From positions 161,360 to 225,359 of the forward strand of contig CALGLP010000022.1 of assembly GCA_937930175.1 (NCBI GenBank): 64,000 nucleotides of DNA, read 5' to 3'. The stretch comes from an uncultured bacterium. Its GTDB lineage: Bacteria > Omnitrophota > Gorgyraeia > Zapsychrales > Aceulaceae. The position numbers were made by a program, and so were the translations under genes. Under the pieces are notes generated by a model that was given only the letters and a program-made list of their open reading frames with translations, ran no database searches and had not been told where the DNA came from. Below are positions 11,845 to 49,877 of the stretch, piece after piece (position 1 is the first letter of the stretch; every line of letters begins with the position of its first letter).

Positions 11845-11931
11845 TTGTAGCGTGAAGCACGCTTGCGGTCTTGACAAAAGGCCAAGGTCTGTTAGGATGA
11901 AAGAAATTAATATTAAGGGAGGTGAGTGACC

Positions 11932-12021
11932 ATGGTCGTTAAGAAGAAAAAAGCAGTAAAAAAAGCACCAGCAAAAAGAAAAGCTAAGGCAAAGAAATCA
12001 AGATCTTGCTGCTGCTGTTAA
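11932..12021 (+). CDS. Small 29-aa Lys-rich peptide ending in CCCC (not in ORF track)
   Basis: RBS AAGGGAGG 7 nt before the ATG. Translation MVVKKKKAVKKAPAKRKAKAKKSRSCCCC. Followed by a strong intrinsic terminator. Confidence 0.35.
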   Translation: MVVKKKKAVKKAPAKRKAKAKKSRSCCCC

Positions 12022-12058
12022 TAGGGCGTAGTATGTTTTGGAAGTAATTGTAAACTTT

Positions 12059-12096
12059 AAGGCAGGATTTCTTAAAAGAAATCCTGCCTTTCTTGT
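12059..12096 (+). terminator. Rho-independent terminator
   Basis: GGCAGGATTTCTT/AAGAAATCCTGCC stem followed by TTTCTTG. Confidence 0.75.
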
Positions 12097-30119: not shown

Positions 30120-30149
30120 ATGAATTTTTGTTCTTTTAATAGTTTTAGG

Positions 30150-30375
30150 CGCTCAAAGAAAAGTTGAGCTTAAGAGGGAAATTCGGTGCAAGGCAATATG
30201 GCCTTTAGTCCGAAGCAGTCCCGCTACTGTAGTCTCGGCAGAAATTGTCGGGAGAGCCAGAATGCCTGCCTAAAACCGGTGTTGATATGCTGCGCGAAAC
30301 AGCATAAAAACAAAACGTTGTGGATTTACAGGGTATGCTCCCAACTGATTTAATCGGTTGGGAGTTTTTTTGTTT
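30150..30375 (+). ncRNA. Cobalamin (B12) riboswitch with terminator-type expression platform
   Basis: AGAGGGAA..GGTG, B12-box-like GTCCCGCTACTGTAG and GGGAGAGCCAGAATGCCTGCC all match conserved cobalamin-aptamer elements. Downstream hairpin CTCCCAAC...GTTGGGAG plus T7 at 30339-30372 lies before the btuB-like start. Confidence 0.75.
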
Positions 30376-34726: not shown

Positions 34727-34905
34727 CGTTTTGCTTGCTAGCTTTTGGGATGCAGCAGGGGCTTAAAAGAAGTGCTTTTTTCGAAGAATCTTTATTGACA
34801 AAATTTGTTTCGCAGGGTAATGTTATAAAAGGTTAAGTTTATCGAGAAGAAAAGACAGATTGTTCTTTGATTCTCAAAATCTTTTTAAAAAGGTAGGTAG
34901 TCAGA

Positions 34906-35108
34906 TGGTAAAAGGTAAAGTCAAGTGGTTTAATGCAAAAAAGGGTTATGGGTTTATTGCAGCGGATAGCGGTGAAGACGTGTTCGTTCACTTTAGCGAA
35001 ATTCAACAGGAGTCTGGGTATAAGGCACTTGATGAAGGCCAAGCCGTTGAATTTGAGATGGTTAATGATGATAAAGGACTTAAAGCTAAGAACGTTGTCA
35101 AGGCTTAA
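34906..35108 (+). CDS. Cold-shock protein CspA family
   Basis: [26 protein letters not shown]. Promoter TTGACA-17-TAATGT upstream. Confidence 0.9.
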
Positions 35109-35134: not shown

Positions 35135-35170
35135 AAAAGGGCTAGCAGATTCTGCTAGCCCTTTTTCTTT
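35135..35170. terminator. Bidirectional rho-independent terminator (csp / hydA convergent)
   Basis: AAAAGGGCTAGCAGA/TCTGCTAGCCCTTTT perfect stem with A and T tracts on either side. Confidence 0.85.
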
Positions 35171-40189: not shown

Positions 40190-40348
40190 TAAATCCTCCA
40201 GTGAGAAGCTTAAGAATAGGGCAAATTATAAAGGAAAGAGGGGAACTAATCAAGAGAAATCTTTTGTTACTATGAGAACTTTTAATTTGACATATTGATA
40301 TCTTATGTTACTATTGTGACATAAAAATAGAGAAAGGAGAGTGTTATT

Positions 40349-41011
40349 GTGACTGAAAGCAAGGAATTGATATCACGATTGCTCAAATATAAGAATGTTT
40401 TAACAAATTTCAAAAAACTTGGGATGGTCAAGATCTTTTCGGACAATCTTGGGGATGCTACGGGGTTGTCCTCGTCGCAGGTGCGTAAGGATTTTAGCGC
40501 CCTCAAGATCACCGGCAATAAGCGTGGCGGTTATGATGTTGATCATTTGGTTGTGCGGCTTAATCAAATCTTAGTTGGTGACCGTAAGCAGAAGGTGATC
40601 GTGGTCGGTTGTGGCAATATTGGCCGTGCCTTGATTGAATATAACGGATTTCATTGCGAGAGTCTAAAAATCGTTGCGGGGTTTGATATTAGCAAAGGGA
40701 AATGGGATCCTGAGGCTAAGGTGCCGATCTATCCATTAGAAAAAATGGAAGAGTATGTTAAGAAGAATCAGATCAAGGTTGGCGTTGTTGCTGTCCCTGA
40801 GAATGAGGCATCTTCGGTTTGCGACAAGATGATCGCCGCAGGTATTAAGGGTATTTTAAATTTTGCACGTGTTTATATTCGCGAGACCGAAGGGGCTGTG
40901 GTGGATACGGTTAACATTGAGCTCAAGATCGAGAATTTGTTTTATTTCGCCAATGCCCTAACCAAAGAACATGATTATTCTAAGATTAAGAGGCAACTCC
41001 ATGAAGATTGA
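40349..41011 (+). CDS. rex: Redox-sensing transcriptional repressor Rex
   Basis: Winged-helix N-terminus (ISRLLKYKNVL...ATGLSSSQVRKDFS) and Rossmann VIVVGCGNIGRAL. GTG start after AAGGAGAG. Confidence 0.85.
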   Translation: MTESKELISRLLKYKNVLTNFKKLGMVKIFSDNLGDATGLSSSQVRKDFSALKITGNKRGGYDVDHLVVRLNQILVGDRKQKVIVVGCGNIGRALIEYNGFHCESLKIVAGFDISKGKWDPEAKVPIYPLEKMEEYVKKNQIKVGVVAVPENEASSVCDKMIAAGIKGILNFARVYIRETEGAVVDTVNIELKIENLFYFANALTKEHDYSKIKRQLHED

Positions 41012-41342
41012 TCAACTTATCAAAGCATTAGATTGTGAGGTGGTGCACCGCCGCAAAGAAACAGGCGTTAAAGATCTCAAGCATTTTGTTGTTTCGGATC
41101 TTATGAGCGATGTCCTTCTTGTCGATGGCGATGTGGATCTTTTGATCACGTCGTTAGCGACAACGCAGGCGATACGCACCGCTGATATCGTAAGTGCGAT
41201 TGGCGTTATTGTTGTTAATGGCAAGGCGGTAACCGCGGATATGAAAGTTTCTGCCAAAGAGCTTGATGTCACGTTGCTGAAGACAAAGCTATCTTCTTTT
41301 GAGGTTTGCGGCACCATTCATCATCTGAAAGGACAAGAGTGA
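41001..41342 (+). CDS. DRTGG domain protein
   Basis: Small protein with a DRTGG-like core (LLITSLATTQAIRTADIVSAIGVIVVNGK). Confidence 0.55.
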   Translation: MKIDQLIKALDCEVVHRRKETGVKDLKHFVVSDLMSDVLLVDGDVDLLITSLATTQAIRTADIVSAIGVIVVNGKAVTADMKVSAKELDVTLLKTKLSSFEVCGTIHHLKGQE

Positions 41343-42283
41343 TGACGGATAAAGGCATTCCGATCAAGATGGAAGAATCGACATCGTTGATCTTGGACTT
41401 GATCTATCAACTCAAGATTAAAGATGTCATGACTCGCAATCTGGTCATTGCTTCTCCTGAGGATTCCTTGGATCATATTAAGACATTAATGAAGCAAAGA
41501 AATGTTACCGGTATTCCGATTGTGAAGAAAGATCGGCTTTTGGGTATCTTGAGTATTGATGATATTTTTAAGGCTTTAGATAGTGGCTATATGCAAGAGC
41601 TTGCAGAAAAGCATATGTCTAAGAAGCTTGTCATGCTCGAAGAGGACATGCCGCTTGCCTTTGCGATTTCTTATTTTGATAAATTTAAGTATGGTCGTTT
41701 TCCTGTGGTTGATAAAAACAATCTTTTGGTAGGGATGATCACGAGCCGTGATATTAATGTTGGACTTTTGATGGCCATCAACAAAGAAGTTGCGCGCATG
41801 GAAGAACTTTTGGCCCAGACGACTCCTGTTGATGCGCATCATATTCGCAAGATGTTCCGTATCCGTAAGTATGATTTTGAACATGCCGGGAACGCGTCAA
41901 ATCGGATTAAAAAGCTTCTTGTGGAGCGTAAGTTGGATCCCAAAGATATTCGACGTGTTGCGGTCGCGATGTATGAGCTCGAGATTAACATTGCTGTCCA
42001 TTCTGACGGAGGAACATTGACGGTGATCATTGATCAAGATCATGCGGAGATTACTGCCAAGGACTCAGCGCCTGGGATCGAACATCCGGAACTCGCGCTT
42101 CAGGAAGGATATTCAACAGCCAACGAATGGATTAAGTCTTTGGGTTTTGGGGCCGGCATGGGGTTAGCCAATATTCGTCGTGTTTCCGATAGTTTTGATT
42201 TTCAGTCGGCGCTTGGCAAGGGAACGACCGTTCGAGCGGTTATTCATTTTAAACGAAAGGAAGAGAAAAGCCATGACCATTAG
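41342..42283 (+). CDS. CBS-pair + histidine-kinase-like ATPase (anti-sigma-factor-type Ser kinase fold)
   Basis: Two CBS motifs (VMTRNLVIASPED, PVVDKNNLLVGMITSRDI). C-terminal HATPase (GFGAGMGLANI, GKGTTV). Confidence 0.65.
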   Translation: MTDKGIPIKMEESTSLILDLIYQLKIKDVMTRNLVIASPEDSLDHIKTLMKQRNVTGIPIVKKDRLLGILSIDDIFKALDSGYMQELAEKHMSKKLVMLEEDMPLAFAISYFDKFKYGRFPVVDKNNLLVGMITSRDINVGLLMAINKEVARMEELLAQTTPVDAHHIRKMFRIRKYDFEHAGNASNRIKKLLVERKLDPKDIRRVAVAMYELEINIAVHSDGGTLTVIIDQDHAEITAKDSAPGIEHPELALQEGYSTANEWIKSLGFGAGMGLANIRRVSDSFDFQSALGKGTTVRAVIHFKRKEEKSHDH

Positions 42284-42608
42284 TGAGATGACAAAGCTTA
42301 CAGAACTTACGCTTGTGCAGAAGGAATTTGAGGATGGTGTGATTTCCGGAGGATACACATCTGATCTTTTGAGCGATGTGATCGCCAATGCTGAGGCGAA
42401 TAATATCTTGATCACAATCCAAGCGCATATTAACACCGTAGCCGTATCAAAATTGGTTGGGATTCGTGCTATTGTTATTGCTAATCATAGAGAAGTTCCT
42501 ATTGATATGGTGGAAGCGGCTCAAAAAGAAAAGATTGCCCTTTTTTCATCAACGCTTAGCCAGTTCTCCTTGTCTGTCTTGATTGGCAAGCATATCCATA
42601 AACAATGA
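42273..42608 (+). CDS. DRTGG domain protein (second copy)
   Basis: ILITIQAHINTVAVSKLVGIRAIVIANHREVPIDMVEAAQKEKIALF. Start overlaps the preceding stop. Confidence 0.55.
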   Translation: MTISEMTKLTELTLVQKEFEDGVISGGYTSDLLSDVIANAEANNILITIQAHINTVAVSKLVGIRAIVIANHREVPIDMVEAAQKEKIALFSSTLSQFSLSVLIGKHIHKQ

Positions 42609-43327
42609 TGCGCATAAAAGCGGATCTCCATATCCATTCGACAGTTTCACCTTGTGCTACTCTTTTGATGTCGCCGAAGAATATTGTTAGCGTTGCGAAG
42701 GCCAAGGGATTGTCTCTTGTGGCCCTGACCGACCATAATTGTACGCGCAATTGTCCTGCATTTTTTTCGTTGTGCAAACGTGAAAATTTATTTTGCTTGG
42801 GCGGGGCTGAAGTGACAACCGTTGAGGAATGTCATGTCCTTTGCCTTTTTGATAATCTCAAGATTATTATGGAATTTGGCCAGTACGTCGAATCCCGCTT
42901 GCCTGATGTGCCTAATCAAAGAGATCTTTTTGGTGATCAGGTTTATGTCAATGACCAGGAGGAGATCTTAGGTTCTGTGGAAAAGTATCTGGGTAATGCC
43001 ACCAGTATTAGCGTCTCTGAGCTTTGTAGGGCTGTGCATGAGCGAGGTGGTATTATTATTCCTGCGCATGTGGATCGTCCTGTTTTTGGAATGATCGCCC
43101 AATTAGGCTTTATTCCGCAGGAGCCTTTTGACGCCCTTGAGATCTATCGAAATAATAAGAGTGCCGCTATTGGCGCAGAAGAAAAGTATCCTCTTATTTC
43201 TAATTCGGATTCGCATATGCCAGATGAAGTTGGTTGTGTTTATACGGCAATGGAGATGCCGGAGATATCCTTTATCAATTTGAAAGAGGCATTGAAGCGT
43301 GGGGCAGTTTTTATTGAGCGGGGATAG
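42605..43327 (+). CDS. PHP-domain metal-dependent phosphoesterase
   Basis: ADLHIHST...ALTDHN...PAHVDRP His/Asp motifs of the PHP family. Confidence 0.75.
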   Translation: MMRIKADLHIHSTVSPCATLLMSPKNIVSVAKAKGLSLVALTDHNCTRNCPAFFSLCKRENLFCLGGAEVTTVEECHVLCLFDNLKIIMEFGQYVESRLPDVPNQRDLFGDQVYVNDQEEILGSVEKYLGNATSISVSELCRAVHERGGIIIPAHVDRPVFGMIAQLGFIPQEPFDALEIYRNNKSAAIGAEEKYPLISNSDSHMPDEVGCVYTAMEMPEISFINLKEALKRGAVFIERG

Positions 43328-43506
43328 CGGTCTTTAGCAAAGAGCAAGAATTACGACTAGATAGTTAAGACTTAAAAAACATTTTTGATTTCTAGTATTT
43401 TGTGTATAATATTTTAATTGATCGAGACAAGGTATTGCATTTTTTAACGAGCAAGGGGTGTGGGGTTGAATAAAGATGATTTTATTTTTTGGTTAAAGAA
43501 ACATGT

Positions 43507-43542
43507 GCCGGCTTACCATGAAAGGTGAGCCGGTTTTATTTT
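43507..43542 (+). terminator. Intrinsic terminator/attenuator ending 23 nt before the nuoE-like start codon
   Basis: GCCGGCTTACC-ATGAAA-GGTGAGCCGG stem followed by TTTTATTTT. RBS AAAAAGGAGG and GTG 43566 follow directly. Confidence 0.6.
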
Positions 43543-43565
43543 ATGGATTTTAAAAAGGAGGCGTT

Positions 43566-44129
43566 GTGAAGCAAATAAGCCAAGGTTTGTCAAAAGATCA
43601 GCCTGTTGGTTCCTGTTGTTGTGGTGAGTTCTCCGAACCAGAAATGTTAAAACGTCTCGATGAGATTATTGATACGTATAAGTCTGCGGATGGGGCCTTG
43701 ATCCCGATCTTGCAAACAGCTCAAAATTTATTTGGATATCTTCCGAAAAATATTTTGCGTCGGATTGGCGAACGATTGCGGATCCCGTATAGTCAAGTCG
43801 CTGGCGTTGTGTCGTTTTATTCTTTTTTCTCAACAAATCCTCGGGGTAAGAATTTAGTGCGTGTGTGTCTGGGAACCGCGTGCTATGTGCGTGGAGGCAA
43901 GGAGGTTTTGTCAACGATGCAAAAAACCCTTGGCATTAATGTTGGTGAAACAACAGCTGATAAAATGTTTTCGCTGGAGGTTGGGCGTTGTTTTGGTGCC
44001 TGTGGTTTGGCGCCTGTTGTGATGATCAACGAGGATGTTCATCAGCGGGTTAAGCCAGCAAAGATAAAAGAACTTCTAAGCTTTTATCGTGAGGCAAAGT
44101 CACAGACACAGGAGGCCGCCGCATGTTAA
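43566..44129 (+). CDS. hydC: NuoE-like 2Fe-2S subunit (HydC/HndA), second locus
   Basis: CLGTACYVRGG...CFGACGLAPV. Confidence 0.85.
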   Translation: MKQISQGLSKDQPVGSCCCGEFSEPEMLKRLDEIIDTYKSADGALIPILQTAQNLFGYLPKNILRRIGERLRIPYSQVAGVVSFYSFFSTNPRGKNLVRVCLGTACYVRGGKEVLSTMQKTLGINVGETTADKMFSLEVGRCFGACGLAPVVMINEDVHQRVKPAKIKELLSFYREAKSQTQEAAAC

Positions 44130-47100
44130 CTGACAAGATTTTATCCTTGAAAGATTTAAATCGTATCAAAGATGCTGCGGTTGCGGAAAAGGTCAAACGT
44201 AGTATTTATAAAGAGGTTTTGATCTGTGCTGGGGGAGGATGTATTGCTAGCGGTTCGCTGCAGATTAAGAAACGCTTGGAAGAGAAGATTGAGAAGAATG
44301 GAGTTGTCATCGATATTGTCGAGACAGGATGTTTAGGTCCTTGCGCTAAGGGGCCTGTGATGGTCGTAAACCCTGGGCATGTCTTTTATGAGAATGTTAC
44401 CCTTGATGATGTTGATCAAATTTTTGAGGAACATCTTTTTAAGGGGAAAATTGTTGAGCGGCTTTTGCATCGCAATTTTGAAACGAATAAACCTGTTTCT
44501 GACATCAAGGATGTTGATTTTTTTAAACGACAAACAAAAATTGTTTTGCGGAATTGCGGAACGATCGATCCTCAGAATATTGTTGATTATATTCGCGTGG
44601 ATGGATATCAGGCTTTGGCCAAGGCTTTGACGATGATGTCGGCTGATCAGATTATTGATGAGGTTAAAAAGTCAGGGCTCCGCGGCCGTGGAGGAGCAGG
44701 GTTTTCTACTGGAATGAAATGGGAATTTACACGTAAAGCGCCCGGCAGTGTTAAATACGCGATTTGCAACGCGGATGAAGGAGATCCTGGGGCTTTCATG
44801 AATCGAAGCGTTCTTGAGGGAGATCCTCATAGCGTGATCGAAGGGATGATGATCGCGGGTTTTGCGATTGGGGCTAAACAAGGATTTGTTTATGTGCGGG
44901 CGGAGTATCCGTTGGCGGTTTCACGATTGATGAAGGCGATCGAGCAGGCTCGGGCGTGTGGCCTTTTAGGAAAAAATATTCTTGGAACGGATTTTTCATT
45001 TGATTTGGATATCCGCATGGGTTCTGGGGCGTTTGTGTGCGGAGAAGAAACTGCTTTGATGGCATCATTGGAGGGAAAGCGTGGAGAGCCGCGTCCGCGT
45101 CCACCTTTTCCAGCTATTAAAGGACTTTGGGGTAAGCCGAGCTTGCTCAATAACGTTGAGACATATGTTAATGTGCCGATCATTCTCCTTAAAGGGGCCG
45201 ATTGGTTTGCGTCGATGGGAACGGAAAAAAGCAAGGGAACCAAGGTGTTTGCCTTAGCAGGGGCTGTGAACAATACAGGGCTTGTGGAGGTTCCTATTGG
45301 GACGTCGCTTGGGGAGTTAATTTATGATATTGGCGGTGGGATCAAAAATGGAAAAGAATTTAAGGCCGCTCAAATTGGAGGGCCCTCGGGAGGCTGTATC
45401 CCTAAGCAACATCTTAATGTTCCATTGGACTACGACACGCTTGTTGAGTTGGGCGCTATCATGGGATCAGGCGGGCTCATTGTGATGGATGATGATTCGT
45501 GTATTGTGGATGTGGCGCGTTTTTTTCTTGAATTTGTGCAAGATGAATCGTGCGGAAAATGTGTGCCGTGTCGTGTTGGGTCAAAACGGATGCTTGAGAT
45601 CCTTGAGAAAATTTGTAAAGGAGAAGGTAAACCAGAGCATATTAAGAAATTGCTTGAATTGGGTGAAGGAATAAAAGATGCTTCGCTTTGTGGGTTAGGC
45701 TATACCTCGGCTAATCCTGTGCGTTCAACCTTGCGTCATTTTCCTAAAGAATATGAAGAGCATATTCGTGATAAACATTGTGAGGCTGGGGTTTGCCCTG
45801 ATCTCGTGCGGGCCCCGTGCCAGAGCGCTTGCCCAGCCGGTGTTGACATTCCAGGTTTTATTGCTTTAACAGGGGAAGAACGCTACGCGGAAGCGCTCAA
45901 GCTTCATCGTGAACGCAATCCTTTTGCGGCTGTGTGCGCAAGAGTTTGTTTTCACACTTGCGAGGATAAATGTCGCCGCGCTACGCTCGATACATCGGTT
46001 TCGATTCGTGGGATCAAGCGTTTTATGGTGGACCAAGAGATTGTCGTCCAAATCCCGGAGATTCATCATAACGAGGCAAATGCTAAGAGAAAGATCGCGA
46101 TTGTTGGGGCGGGGCCTGCCGGACTGTCTTGTGCGTATTTTCTTGCGCGCTTAGGTTATCGTCCTACGGTTTTTGAGAAAGAAATGCGTCCTGGAGGGAT
46201 GCTTGTTCAAACTATTCCTGCGTATCGTTTGCCACGAGAAACCTTAGCCCGTGAAATCCGCATGATTGAGCAGCTTGGTGTTGAAATTGAAACCGGAAAG
46301 GCGCTGGGACGTGATTTTACGATTGATTCGTTAAAGAAGCATGGTTATGAGGCGATCTTTATTGCCGTAGGAGCTCCGGAAAGTGTGCGCCTTGGGCTTG
46401 ACGGCGAAGCCTCGGGAGGGGTTGTTGATGCCCTTGATTTTTTAAGAACTTATAATATCAGGGGATCTGTTCCTGTGGGTAAGAAAGTTGTTGTTGTAGG
46501 AGGTGGGAATGCCGCGATTGATGCCTCGCGGAGCGCGTTGCGTTTAGGGGCCCAAGAAGTGACGGTTGTTTATCGTCGTAGTCAAAATGAAATGCCAGCG
46601 TACGCGGAAGAAGTGGACGAGGCTTTGCATGAAGGTGTCAAGATCTTGCCTTTAACTCACCCTATCGAGATCAAAAAGGATAAGGATGGGAAAGTCTGTG
46701 GATTAAAGTGTATTCACATGAAGCTTGGGGATTTTGATCAGACAGGGCGACGACGCCCAACCGCGAACGCGGAAGATGTTTTCGATATGGAAACGGATCA
46801 AGTGATTGTTGCGATTGGACAGAAAATGGATGTTAAAAAGCTTCTTGATGGGGTAACGATGAAGCTTTCAGAGAGAAATTTTATTTATGCGGATCCGGTT
46901 TTAGGAAAAACTTCGGTGGAGGGAATTTTTGCCGGAGGGGATGCCACGACGGGTCCTTCCTCAGTTGTGATGGCGATTTCTTCAGGAGAACATGCGGCAG
47001 TTGGGATTGATCAATATTTGACCGGAGAAGAACATGCATTTTGGCGTGTGCAGAAAGCTGTTAAGGTTGATTTTGATCCCGATGCGGACCCTGCTCCATA

Positions 47101-47260
47101 TCCGCGAGATCCGTTGCGATTGATTGATGTGGCGCGTCGCAAACATAATTTTGATGAAGTTGAACAATCGTGGAATGAAGGCGTAGCTAGGCGGCAAGCC
47201 AAGCGATGTTTGCGCTGCGATTATGGAAAATGTTTAGATGAGAAAGGGGGTAAGGCGTAA
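44123..47260 (+). CDS. hydB: NuoF-like flavoprotein subunit (HydB) fused to a C-terminal GltD/NfnB-like NAD(P)H:FAD oxidoreductase domain
   Basis: The N-terminal 600 aa are collinear with the first-locus HydB (GRGGAGFSTG, ADEGDPGA, 4Fe-4S motifs). The C-terminal 440 aa carry the GltD-type Cys motifs, IVGAGPAGL and a second VVVGGGNAA dinucleotide fold. Confidence 0.85.
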   Translation: MLTDKILSLKDLNRIKDAAVAEKVKRSIYKEVLICAGGGCIASGSLQIKKRLEEKIEKNGVVIDIVETGCLGPCAKGPVMVVNPGHVFYENVTLDDVDQIFEEHLFKGKIVERLLHRNFETNKPVSDIKDVDFFKRQTKIVLRNCGTIDPQNIVDYIRVDGYQALAKALTMMSADQIIDEVKKSGLRGRGGAGFSTGMKWEFTRKAPGSVKYAICNADEGDPGAFMNRSVLEGDPHSVIEGMMIAGFAIGAKQGFVYVRAEYPLAVSRLMKAIEQARACGLLGKNILGTDFSFDLDIRMGSGAFVCGEETALMASLEGKRGEPRPRPPFPAIKGLWGKPSLLNNVETYVNVPIILLKGADWFASMGTEKSKGTKVFALAGAVNNTGLVEVPIGTSLGELIYDIGGGIKNGKEFKAAQIGGPSGGCIPKQHLNVPLDYDTLVELGAIMGSGGLIVMDDDSCIVDVARFFLEFVQDESCGKCVPCRVGSKRMLEILEKICKGEGKPEHIKKLLELGEGIKDASLCGLGYTSANPVRSTLRHFPKEYEEHIRDKHCEAGVCPDLVRAPCQSACPAGVDIPGFIALTGEERYAEALKLHRERNPFAAVCARVCFHTCEDKCRRATLDTSVSIRGIKRFMVDQEIVVQIPEIHHNEANAKRKIAIVGAGPAGLSCAYFLARLGYRPTVFEKEMRPGGMLVQTIPAYRLPRETLAREIRMIEQLGVEIETGKALGRDFTIDSLKKHGYEAIFIAVGAPESVRLGLDGEASGGVVDALDFLRTYNIRGSVPVGKKVVVVGGGNAAIDASRSALRLGAQEVTVVYRRSQNEMPAYAEEVDEALHEGVKILPLTHPIEIKKDKDGKVCGLKCIHMKLGDFDQTGRRRPTANAEDVFDMETDQVIVAIGQKMDVKKLLDGVTMKLSERNFIYADPVLGKTSVEGIFAGGDATTGPSSVVMAISSGEHAAVGIDQYLTGEEHAFWRVQKAVKVDFDPDADPAPYPRDPLRLIDVARRKHNFDEVEQSWNEGVARRQAKRCLRCDYGKCLDEKGGKA

Positions 47261-49038
47261 TGGTGAAGTTAACAATTGATCGTAACATGGTCGAAGTTCC
47301 CCCTGAGATGACGATTTTGCAGGCCGCGCGACAAATGGGCATTATTATTCCTACGTTGTGTTATCTAGAAGGTAAGGATCCTATTGGTGCCTGTCGGGTG
47401 TGCGTTGTTGAGGTGCAAGGTGGTCGTAATTTGGTATCATCTTGTTCAACGCCTGTTGCGGAAGGCATGGTTGTTTTTACCAATAGCCCCCGTGTTCGTA
47501 GAGCTCGTAAATTAGTTGTTGAGCTTCTTTTGAGTGAGCATGAAGGAGATTGTCAAATTTGTGACCGCAGTGAGGATTGCGAATTAAAATCCTTGGCTTA
47601 TAGCTTAGGAATTCGCGAGCCGCATTATGAGGGTGAAAAGCCAGAAAGGTTTTTGGATGTAAGTTCTTCCGCGCTTGTTCGAGATTCTGGCAAGTGCATA
47701 AAATGTCGTCGCTGTGTTACGGTTTGCAACGAAATTCAACACGTGGGAGCCCTTTTTCCTCAGAATCGTGGATATAAAACATTGATCGGACCTGCGTTTG
47801 CTCTAGGCCTTGAAGATGTACCTTGCGTTCAATGTGGGCAGTGTGCAGCGGTTTGTCCTGTGGGCGCGATCATTGAGAAAAGCCATGTGGATATGGTTTG
47901 GGCAGCGCTTGAGGACAAGACTAAACATGTCGTTGTGCAAACCGCTCCCGCGATTCGTGCGGCGCTAGGGGAGTGTTTTGATTATCCACCAGGAACTCTT
48001 GTGACAGGAAAAATGATCACCGCGCTTCGTCTTATGGGATTTGATGCGGTTTTTGATACTAATTTTGCGGCGGATTTGACGATCATGGAAGAAGGCACAG
48101 AGCTTTTGTTGCGTCTTAAAAAGGCGCTCGTTGAAAAACAACCCGTGGCCTTGCCTCAATTTTCAAGTTGTTCGCCGGGATGGATCAAGTTTACCGAATA
48201 TTTTTATCCAGAGTTTCTGCCGAATCTATCTTCTTGTAAGTCACCGCAACAAATGTTTGGCGCGATCGCGAAGACGTTTTATGCGCAAAAGAAGGGCTTG
48301 CGTCCTGAAGATATTGTTGTTGTGTCGGTTATGCCGTGTACGGCGAAAAAGTTTGAATCCAGCCGTCCTGAGATGAATAGTAGCGGCGTCAGAGACGTGG
48401 ATTATGTTTTGACAACACGCGAATTAGGTCAGATGATCACGGCGGCCGGTATTCATTTTACAGCGTTAGAAGACGGACAGACGGATTCGCCTCTTGGGCT
48501 TTCGTCGGGTGCCGCGGATATTTTTGCTAATAGCGGTGGGGTTATGGAGGCGGCTATCCGTACGGCTTACGAGATCGTGACAGGTCGTGAGCTTCCACTT
48601 GTAAATCTTCATGTTGAACCTTTGGCAGGGCTAAAGGGAATTAAAGAAGCAGCCCTTAAGCTTGAGCAGGTTCTTCCGGCGTGGTCTTTTTTAGAAGGTG
48701 TTGAATTAAAAGTCGCCGTCGCGCATAGCTTATCCAATGCCGCGGCCTTGCTTGATCTCATCAAGGCGGGTCAGGCCCATTATCATTTTGTTGAGGTCAT
48801 GACATGTCCTGGGGGATGTATTGGTGGAGGAGGCCAGCCGCGATTTACAACTGATGAAGTCCGTCGGGCGCGCATCAATGCGATCTACAAGGAAGACGAA
48901 GGCAAGGCAATGCGCAAATCCCATGACAATCCGGACGTAAAAAAGCTCTATGCAGAGTTTTTGACTGATGGCCCTTGTGGTCATCAAAGCCATAAGCTTT
49001 TGCATACGCATTATGTTGACCGTGGGGATAAAATTTGA
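47260..49038 (+). CDS. hydA: [FeFe]-hydrogenase catalytic subunit, second locus, with variant L1 motif
   Basis: MPCTAKKFE and EVMTCPGGCIGGGGQP are conserved. L1 reads FSSCSPGW instead of TSCCPxW. N-terminal 2Fe-2S plus ferredoxin domains. ATG overlaps the hydB stop. Confidence 0.9.
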   Translation: MVKLTIDRNMVEVPPEMTILQAARQMGIIIPTLCYLEGKDPIGACRVCVVEVQGGRNLVSSCSTPVAEGMVVFTNSPRVRRARKLVVELLLSEHEGDCQICDRSEDCELKSLAYSLGIREPHYEGEKPERFLDVSSSALVRDSGKCIKCRRCVTVCNEIQHVGALFPQNRGYKTLIGPAFALGLEDVPCVQCGQCAAVCPVGAIIEKSHVDMVWAALEDKTKHVVVQTAPAIRAALGECFDYPPGTLVTGKMITALRLMGFDAVFDTNFAADLTIMEEGTELLLRLKKALVEKQPVALPQFSSCSPGWIKFTEYFYPEFLPNLSSCKSPQQMFGAIAKTFYAQKKGLRPEDIVVVSVMPCTAKKFESSRPEMNSSGVRDVDYVLTTRELGQMITAAGIHFTALEDGQTDSPLGLSSGAADIFANSGGVMEAAIRTAYEIVTGRELPLVNLHVEPLAGLKGIKEAALKLEQVLPAWSFLEGVELKVAVAHSLSNAAALLDLIKAGQAHYHFVEVMTCPGGCIGGGGQPRFTTDEVRRARINAIYKEDEGKAMRKSHDNPDVKKLYAEFLTDGPCGHQSHKLLHTHYVDRGDKI

Positions 49039-49442: not shown

Positions 49443-49567
49443 GAAATATTTGGTGCTCTTTCTGATAGCATAATTCGTTACATTGACCTACGGACAAGGG
49501 GCGTCAAAGCCCTGTGGCTAAGGGATCAACTCGCAGCAAATATTTGTTGGTGAGTTGTGTTTTTTAG

Positions 49568-49610
49568 AATCCCGGGTTTCCGTTAACAGGCAATCCGGGA
49601 TTTTTATTTT
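49568..49610 (+). terminator. Intrinsic terminator/attenuator ending 18 nt before the hydrogenase-maturation operon start
   Basis: AATCCCGG...CCGGGATT stem with a 19-nt loop followed by TTTTTATTTT. RBS GGAG and ATG 49629 follow. Confidence 0.55.
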
Positions 49611-49628
49611 ATTGATAGGAGAAATATA

Positions 49629-49877
49629 ATGAAAAATCGTTTAGGTTTTATTGGGATTATTATTCATGATCGGGATAAGAGTGCTGAAAAGGTTAATCAT
49701 ATTTTGCATCAGCACGCCAAAATGTTCGTCGGGCGCATGGGTATTCCGTACAAGGAAAAGAATGTGGGTGTTATTACCTTGATTGTCGATGCGGATACGG
49801 ATGACATTGGCGCCCTTACGGGCCGACTTGGCGAGATTGAAGGTGTTTCTGTTAAATCAGCGTTAGTTAAAGAATAG
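49629..49877 (+). CDS. Putative iron-only hydrogenase system regulator (TM1266-like small ACT-type protein)
   Basis: About 80-aa protein at the head of a hydEFG cluster. Sequence and context match the TM1266-like family. Confidence 0.6.
   Translation: MKNRLGFIGIIIHDRDKSAEKVNHILHQHAKMFVGRMGIPYKEKNVGVITLIVDADTDDIGALTGRLGEIEGVSVKSALVKE

Follow-up and report, generated by a model that had tools for sequence, protein, structure and literature searches.

A conserved promoter and terminator leader with a putative upstream reading frame before a hydrogenase operon of Omnitrophota

The question raised by the locus described here is how transcription reaches a hydrogenase operon whose first gene is closely preceded by what looks like an intrinsic terminator. 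The window, which is the whole stretch of 64,000 nucleotides (64 kb) that was analysed, has MAGs of Candidatus Omnitrophota as its closest database relatives. It carries on the forward strand a regulatory cluster (40349-43327) headed by rex (40349-41011) and comprising further genes with DRTGG, CBS-HATPase, DRTGG-like and PHP domains, of which the PHP-domain gene (42605-43327, assigned from Pfam) is the last. The synteny of this cluster is the same in L174, L175, L176 and L162, the window. A first hydrogenase operon is divergent from rex. Behind the cluster, and on the same strand, follow three genes assigned from Pfam, namely hydC (NuoE-like, 43566-44129), hydB (a NuoF-GltD fusion of 1045 aa, 44123-47260) and hydA ([FeFe] hydrogenase, 47260-49038). 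HydB joins a NuoF-like module (Complex1_51K, NADH_4Fe-4S) to a GltD-like or pyridine-nucleotide-disulfide-oxidoreductase module, and all relatives of the 'second' hydrogenase share this fusion. Behind hydA lie a CMD-family gene, a second terminator, a TM1266-like regulator gene, an aspartase (Lyase_1) and hydF, hydG and hydE.

Between the stop codon of the PHP gene (43327) and the GTG start of hydC (43566) there is an intergenic region of 238 nt. We tentatively propose, at somewhat less than an even chance, that its part from 43373 to 43565 is a ribosome-gated leader of the pyrBI/ampC type that would attenuate transcription of hydCBA and would also terminate the rex-PHP operon.

Promoter, terminator and ribosome binding site of the leader

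The hairpin before hydC was identified by a terminator scan at 43507-43534 on the forward strand (GCCGGCTTACC-ATGAAA-GGTGAGCCGGT), with a loop of 6 nt and a stem of 11 pairs that includes 7 G-C pairs. On folding, its GC-rich core of 10-11 bp (43508-43533, CCGGCTTACC/GGTGAGCCGG) has a stability of -18.4 kcal/mol. The stem is directly abutted by a T-tract, TTTTATTTT (43534-43542, forward strand), which gives 8 U in 9. The 23 nt that remain up to the GTG (43543-43565) contain the hydC ribosome binding site AAAGGAGG (43554-43561, forward strand), at a spacing of 4 nt from the start codon. The original prediction had placed a hairpin and T-tract ending 23 nt before GTG 43566, and all of its coordinates were found to be correct when they were re-derived.

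The hairpin and T-tract have the form of an intrinsic (Rho-independent) terminator and are predicted to terminate transcription. The strength of the hairpin matches that of the operon-end terminators of the same window, which a scan of the 64 kb located at 1107, 5942, 12061, 32483, 35139, 49570 and 63101, all with T-tracts and with stabilities of -16 to -22 kcal/mol. A generic terminator scan of 41-46 kb returned 5 sites against 5.1 expected from shuffles, and a site of this kind is not statistically special on its own; among the five, the hydC-leader hairpin far exceeds the others in strength. Two other identities of the hairpin were considered and rejected. The hairpin sequence occurs in a single copy in the 64 kb window, with 0 chance matches, and it is therefore not a dispersed palindromic repeat. 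It is also not a bidirectional terminator, since on the minus strand no T-tract follows the hairpin.

Upstream of the hairpin, the best-conserved block of the intergenic region consists of a TATAAT hexamer with about 30 nt before it. This block, TAAAAAACATTTTTGATTTCTAGTATTTTGTGTATAATA (43373-43411, forward strand; alignment columns 44-82), is 79-92% identical in pairwise comparisons. TATAAT occupies 43405-43410, within TGTGTATAAT at 43401-43410, and could serve as the -10 element; TTTTTG is found 17 nt upstream of it and a canonical TTGACA is absent. A consensus promoter scan omitted the site because no TTGACA-like -35 element lies at 16-18 nt. From the sequence and its conservation we infer promoter activity for this block, with a transcription start presumed near 43417. 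No better promoter candidate was found between the PHP stop at 43327 and the hairpin, which agrees with the earlier claim that the only obvious promoter is TGTGTATAAT, upstream of the hairpin. In its 5' part (43417-43452, forward strand) the leader is conserved neither in sequence (31-50% pairwise) nor in structure.

With only 23 nt from the T-tract to the GTG, there is no room for a separate hydC promoter. A promoter downstream of the hairpin has therefore been rejected, the candidates that overlap the hairpin being poor and not conserved. Transcripts that reach hydCBA, whether they begin at the TATAAT promoter or in the rex-PHP operon, must consequently pass the hairpin. The earlier statement that transcription of hydC-hydB-hydA has to pass a terminator is thus supported by the conserved upstream promoter together with this short gap. 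Terminator scans found no other terminator between the PHP stop and the leader hairpin, so the same hairpin would also end the transcripts of the upstream rex-PHP operon.

Conservation and distribution among Omnitrophota

Genome and metagenome scans, a protein search and a comparison of contigs yielded a set of seven leader haplotypes from four deep lineages of Candidatus Omnitrophota. These are the window (L162), L001 (identical to L081, with the variant L178), L082 (identical to L083, with the variant L176) and L003 (identical to L084 and L174, with the variant L175). HydC is 84-91% identical between the four lineages, and the 4-fold degenerate sites of hydC are 40-59% identical, so that unconstrained DNA has been nearly randomised between them. 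Against this background four intergenic blocks are conserved, namely the promoter, the hairpin, the T-tract and the hydC ribosome binding site, which together are 67-100% identical, the rest of the intergenic region being 21-50% identical. The hairpin is 67-83% identical between lineages and the block with the hydC ribosome binding site 71-94%; the stretch after the PHP stop is 28-40% identical in pairwise comparisons, and the spacer after the T-tract 21-67% identical and hence unconstrained.

All the lineages have a T-tract, in the form of TTTTATTTT, TTTTTTT(T)A or TTTTTCTTTT. In the RNAalifold alignment 10 pairs of the hairpin are kept; in one pair both partners have changed (C-G to U-A) and in three only one partner has, and the changes include C-G to U-G and U-A to U-G, the latter added by L175. 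Blocks conserved amid near-saturated divergence indicate that the promoter, the predicted terminator and their order are under selection, and this is the strongest result of the analysis.

The leader hairpin is not a general feature of hydC. Upstream regions of HydC homologues were compared in 132 distinct cases from many phyla, and the strong hairpin occurs only in the four close lineages, the other 128 regions being without the module. Three relatives with 72-76% HydC identity (L168, L172 and L163) share a TATAAT or TATAGT promoter and a T-rich stretch close to the ribosome binding site; their leaders are about 55-60 nt shorter and have no module of Shine-Dalgarno-like motif, upstream reading frame and hairpin. 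L163 has only a weak AU-rich hairpin of -11.6 kcal/mol. In other cases the gene arrangement itself differs, with hydC directly behind another hydA in L161, L164-167, L173 and L085/86 and behind rex in L170. As the relatives share the promoter and the region of the ribosome binding site but not the module, the module appears to be a recent, clade-specific addition to a leader that existed before it.

The corresponding regions of these three relatives (L168 2292-2400, L172 1440-1560, L163 730-825) carry a conserved canonical promoter, TTGAAA-N16/17-TACAAT, followed by a short transcript region, a small hairpin with a T-run and a second TATAAT-type promoter that aligns with that of the window. 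This layout may represent a tandem promoter or a short-RNA arrangement.

A different kind of control is indicated in more distant Omnitrophota. L004, L089, L008 and L087 have a canonical promoter and a TTGTNNN-N4-TTCACAA box before hydC, as expected of the Rex-operator control of [FeFe]-hydrogenase operons that is also known in Firmicutes. The window clade has the same type of operon and the same neighbourhood, with rex heading the cluster, but its leader contains no Rex box and has the uORF-terminator module instead. The five weak Rex-box matches in the whole window equal the chance expectation. The best of the Rex-box-like sites of the window, TTATGAAAATTTTCACAA at 55389-55406, has 1 mismatch to TTGTGAA-N4-TTCACAA and lies upstream of an ORF starting at 55693, just behind the hyd maturase genes. 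Between rex and the first hydrogenase operon, the divergent promoter region (40254-40348) contains the inverted repeat ATGTTAC-TATT-GTGACAT (40305-40322), and TTGTTATTACAATAACA is found at the corresponding place in L174 (6627-6817). These two elements may be variant Rex operators.

The upstream reading frame and control of read-through

A short open reading frame (uORF) that extends into the hairpin has been identified in the leader. In the window a Shine-Dalgarno-like AAGGGG (43453-43458, forward strand) lies 7 nt upstream of a TTG that opens a frame of 20 codons (MNKDDFIFWLKKHVPAYHER; 43466-43528, forward strand), with its TGA (43526-43528) in the 3' arm of the hairpin; GTG 43460 is an alternative start. 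Orthologous leaders have AAGGAG, CAGGAG or ACGGAG at the same place, and in sequence and spacing the motif resembles the Shine-Dalgarno sequences of real genes of the window, such as AAAGGAGG of hydC. In 7/7 haplotypes the motif and TTG are found 53-56 nt after the -10 hexamer, the TTG being 4-7 nt behind the motif, and in all seven the uORF, of 18-30 codons, runs into the hairpin, so that the 5' arm lies inside it. The window and L082/L176 have the stop codon in the 3' arm and L003/L175 have it in the loop, whereas in L001/L178 it comes only behind the T-tract, with 15 nt left to the hydC GTG; the frame of L001 is confirmed by the independent assembly L178. Between the start of the uORF and the T-tract there are 68-74 nt.

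The peptide itself does not appear to matter. The predicted products (MNKDDFIFWLKKHVPAYHER, MLVDMLFSF..., MLEDMLSLAC... and MRRASFAYRQQLFFPVYR) have no common codon run, the body of the uORF is 25-62% identical in nucleotides, and the peptides vary in sequence, in length and in their frame with respect to the hairpin. A conserved leader peptide was rejected, the P-A/V-Y residues common to the peptides being the translated hairpin arm; in L001 the frame homologous to the other uORFs is not the one that the TTG opens. Purifying selection on the peptide, as for a stand-alone small protein gene, was not observed across these lineages, length and frame being variable. The single substitution in the uORF of L176 is synonymous, which counts in favour of the proposed attenuator; L003 and L175 differ by two non-synonymous changes, which count against it. 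Every uORF contains T-runs (43481-43491 in the window, immediately ahead of the hairpin in L082 and L003), at positions that are not conserved. If the uORF is of importance, it would be the act of translation, which is predicted here, that counts. Other reading frames are also open across the leader in some lineages. The public gene call P0122, from an L082-like contig, extends HydC by 27 residues through the ribosome binding site, T-tract and hairpin (214 aa against 187), an annotation artefact that results from such an open frame.

A conserved Shine-Dalgarno-like motif and TTG uORF that enters the hairpin point to ribosome-mediated attenuation rather than to metabolite sensing. The original prediction had offered attenuation or riboswitch-like control, or regulated read-through from the PHP gene; attenuation is plausible, riboswitch-like control is not, and read-through from the PHP gene may occur. 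The motif and uORF had been overlooked in that prediction. In the attenuator that we propose, the order of elements would be the TATAAT promoter, an unconserved stretch of about 35 nt, the Shine-Dalgarno-like motif with the TTG uORF, the terminator (43507-43542) and the 23 nt with the hydC ribosome binding site. RNA polymerase would stop at about 43541-43543 unless the 5' arm of the hairpin is covered by a ribosome translating the uORF while the T-tract is transcribed, and read-through into hydCBA would be set by how closely the first ribosome trails the polymerase. Such a kinetic race would make an antiterminator helix unnecessary, as in E. coli pyrBI and pyrE. With only 68-74 nt between the uORF start and the T-tract, the outcome would depend on this race. 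Candidate signals are the translational or energy status of the cell, polymerase pauses within the T-rich uORF, or blockage of its Shine-Dalgarno sequence by some factor.

Precedents for the influence of ribosome position on intrinsic terminators are available. At E. coli tR2, termination fell from about 90% to under 10% when the stop codon was moved from 28 bp to 5 bp upstream, and the relief by a nearby stop codon was lost when translation was removed (PMC4824070). In E. coli a terminator is still active when it lies in the first 100 bp of an ORF, the first ribosome having not yet caught up (PMC4824070), and this would leave the race a range over which to regulate. The pyrBI attenuator is reported to follow the same logic of a race between ribosome and polymerase (Roland et al. 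1988).

Several observations nevertheless speak against the attenuator. The uORF is short, and over so small a distance the ribosome would need a pause of the polymerase in order to reach it, the T-runs present in every uORF having no conserved position; the Shine-Dalgarno-like motif could serve another purpose; and there is no obvious reason for coupling the expression of a hydrogenase to translation. The variability of the peptide and of its frame relative to the hairpin is a further point against it, as are the other frames that are open in some lineages. In dinucleotide shuffles the chance of an ORF with a Shine-Dalgarno-like motif and start codon was 0.47, 0.145, 0.021 and 0.038 in the leaders of the four lineages. 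The product, 5.5e-5, is no more than suggestive, as the test is post hoc, the lineages are related and not fully independent, and the window alone, at 0.47, is unremarkable.

This unremarkable value for the window is in keeping with another explanation, in which the hairpin would be a constitutive and partly leaky terminator or insulator that ends the rex-PHP operon and short transcripts from the TATAAT promoter, the uORF would be incidental, and hydCBA would be expressed from the fraction of transcripts that read through, with no switch. The absence of any other terminator after the PHP stop and of a conserved sensing structure fits this explanation, as does the second terminator at 49570-49600, which also abuts a ribosome binding site and is conserved in L174, so that terminators before genes are perhaps a habit of the lineage. 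A hairpin of -18 kcal/mol with 8 U in 9 is, however, expected to stop most transcripts, and with the only conserved promoter upstream of it, most initiation there would be wasted. The position of the Shine-Dalgarno-like motif and TTG is moreover kept in all lineages amid randomised sequence, and we regard a merely leaky terminator as doubtful, though it deserves serious consideration.

Antitermination by a factor acting in trans, in which the polymerase would be made to ignore the hairpin by a protein or small RNA that either modifies it or binds to the leader, is considered unlikely. The leader is situated directly downstream of the five-gene regulatory cluster, which is syntenic in all lineages, and a partner of its DRTGG, CBS-HATPase and PHP module or Rex would be candidates, along with a cold-shock protein whose csp gene adjoins the hydrogenase cluster here and in L174. 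The conserved purine block that resembles a Shine-Dalgarno sequence could be a binding site, and no switch made of RNA only was found. Yet Pfam assigns no recognised RNA-binding or antiterminator domain to the neighbouring proteins, the leader has no Rex box, and no EAR, nut or ops-like family was detected by Rfam in the leader and orthologous loci; the case is one argued purely by exclusion.

It is also improbable that the conserved promoter and terminator belong to an independent small gene, for a micropeptide or an sRNA of about 125 nt, with hydCBA transcribed from an unrecognised promoter that overlaps the hairpin and T-tract, for example TTACCA-N18-TATTTT. A conserved promoter and terminator with a variable body are typical of small RNA genes, another stand-alone micro-gene is present in the window at 11872-12096, and weak hexamers like -35 and -10 elements are seen by inspection across the hairpin and T-tract. 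But the sequence and length of the peptide are not conserved, the overlapping promoter matches at best 8/12 and is absent in L003 and L082, the spacer after the T-tract (21-67%) is unconstrained, and a transcription start there would give a 5' UTR of 15 nt or less.

Searches for RNA elements in the leader were negative throughout. At the gathering threshold, Rfam gave no match to the leader in a search of the whole window, the only hit being an unrelated cobalamin riboswitch at 30130; with E up to 10 the best match of the leader was GibS, at 25.5 bits against the 115 required and driven by the terminator. The orthologous leaders of L081, L082 and L084 gave no Rfam match either. Neither T-box nor PyrR was matched with E up to 10 in the window leader and three orthologous loci. 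In L082 the purine block GUCAGGAGAGCCUUG looks by eye like a PyrR loop, which the window and L003 do not have; occurring in L082 only and with no support from the models, the PyrR or T-box identity of the block was rejected.

RNAalifold found no conserved structure besides the terminator, proposing only one weak helix of 5 pairs between the Shine-Dalgarno-like block and a U-rich stretch. When the 3' arm of the hairpin was blocked, the folds differed in every lineage. RNAduplex pairings of the upstream leader with the 5' arm reached -6.5 to -10.6 kcal/mol, the same as in shuffles, and helices of the trp/his type, with a 2:3 antiterminator against a 3:4 terminator, were not found in the leader. 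None of the alternative antiterminator structures predicted is thus conserved or above the level of shuffles. Single-sequence folds of the leader have z = -2.4 to -4.4 against shuffles, a stability that comes mostly from the terminator. The riboswitch-like control suggested originally is therefore not supported, Rfam giving no match, the 5' leader being at neutral level (31-50%) and only the terminator being conserved. A new metabolite-binding riboswitch with the terminator as its expression platform is very improbable, for although a leader of about 125 nt with a terminator abutting the ribosome binding site fits the general layout and its single-sequence folds exceed shuffles in stability, the part that would form the aptamer is no more conserved than neutral DNA, no helices other than the terminator are common to the four lineages of the window, L081, L082 and L084, and no alternative pairing of the terminator arms exceeds chance.

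Relation to known systems and neighbouring elements

The attenuator proposed here resembles E. coli pyrBI (with pyrL) and pyrE in a leader ORF that is rich in T/U and reaches or overlaps an intrinsic terminator just upstream of the structural genes, and in requiring no antiterminator helix, as the ribosome itself would block the hairpin. In L001 the uORF passes the T-tract and ends shortly ahead of the ribosome binding site, as pyrL does. The Omnitrophota uORF differs in being 18-30 codons long, against 44 in pyrL, and in having its stop inside the hairpin in three lineages; its T-runs are not conserved in position and a UTP-sensitive pause is not evident. The operon is hydC-hydB-hydA and not a set of UTP-responsive pyrimidine genes. 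There is no sequence homology between them, and the likeness is one of functional analogy and not of family membership.

A single hairpin with two roles is also reported from E. coli, where the frd terminator is said to be the ampC attenuator (work of Jaurin, Grundström, Normark and co-workers in the early 1980s). The ampC promoter reportedly lies upstream of the hairpin and inside the upstream gene, the leader has a minimal start-stop ORF at which ribosome binding was proposed to modulate read-through, and control is said to follow growth rate. The order of the PHP stop (43327), TATAAT (43405-43410) and hairpin (43507-43534) is comparable, the differences being a uORF of 18-30 codons and a hydC promoter that is intergenic and not within the upstream gene. 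With the trp, his, leu and pheA attenuators the leader shares a short ORF, whose translation is predicted, followed by an intrinsic terminator upstream of an operon, but it has no regulatory codon run and no 2:3 antiterminator, and the uORF overlaps the terminator itself and not an upstream segment.

The control of hydrogenase operons acts, to our knowledge, on the initiation of transcription, through Rex, sigma-54 activators or H2-sensing hydrogenase-like proteins. Literature searches on DRTGG, PHP and hydrogenase returned nothing, and those on Omnitrophota, hydrogenase and Rex returned no paper on this leader. An attenuator before hydCBA would add a layer of control after initiation. It would be a compact natural terminator gated by ribosome position alone, in a phylum with no cultured representatives. 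Ribosome-gated attenuation itself is already known, and it is probably the hydrogenase setting that is new. Gene callers mis-handle the region, as P0122 shows, and operon predictions would be mistaken whether they take rex to hydA as a single unit or let the hyd operon begin at hydC.

There is a slim chance that the module is a genuine switch which ties the [FeFe]-hydrogenase, an enzyme linked to NAD(P)H and probably electron-bifurcating, to the translational or energy state of the cell, or to a DRTGG, CBS-HATPase or PHP factor acting on the Shine-Dalgarno sequence of the uORF, and which has replaced the Rex-operator control of the relatives. It would then be the first case of attenuation in a hydrogenase operon, and the first lead to the function of a widespread regulatory gene cluster associated with hydrogenases. 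If the hairpin is merely a leaky terminator, the finding is an ordinary one.

The second strong terminator behind hydA (49570-49600, -16.4 kcal/mol, TTTTTATTTTATT) ends about 5 nt before the ribosome binding site of the TM1266-like gene, an 'iron-only hydrogenase system regulator' that starts at ATG 49629 and is followed by the aspartase gene and hydF/G/E. In the intergenic region of about 190 nt to which it belongs (49443-49629; L174 15874-16084) small hairpins are conserved, and in L174 the terminator shows covariation. From GTG 49514 there runs an ORF with no Shine-Dalgarno sequence, which stops 2 nt before the 49570 hairpin. The 15-mer TTTTATTTTAT[G/T]GAT and the motif ACGRRCAAGGGG in this region resemble the hydC leader.

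A cold-shock-domain gene (34905-35108; L174 1318-1521) adjoins the 3' end of the first hydrogenase operon, from which it is separated by a bidirectional terminator (35139-35161), and the adjacency is kept in L174. The cobalamin riboswitch of the window (30130-30364, Rfam RF00174, 57.4 bits) has its own terminator at 30338-30364. For the ORF behind it the first-start rule gives 30320, which lies inside the expression platform, and ATG 30432 is a likelier start. The micro-gene at 11872-12096 consists of a promoter (TTGACA-N17-TAGGAT), a ribosome binding site (AAGGGAGG), an ORF of 29 codons (MVVKKKKAVKKAPAKRKAKAKKSRSCCCC*, 11933-12022) and a terminator (12061-12088).
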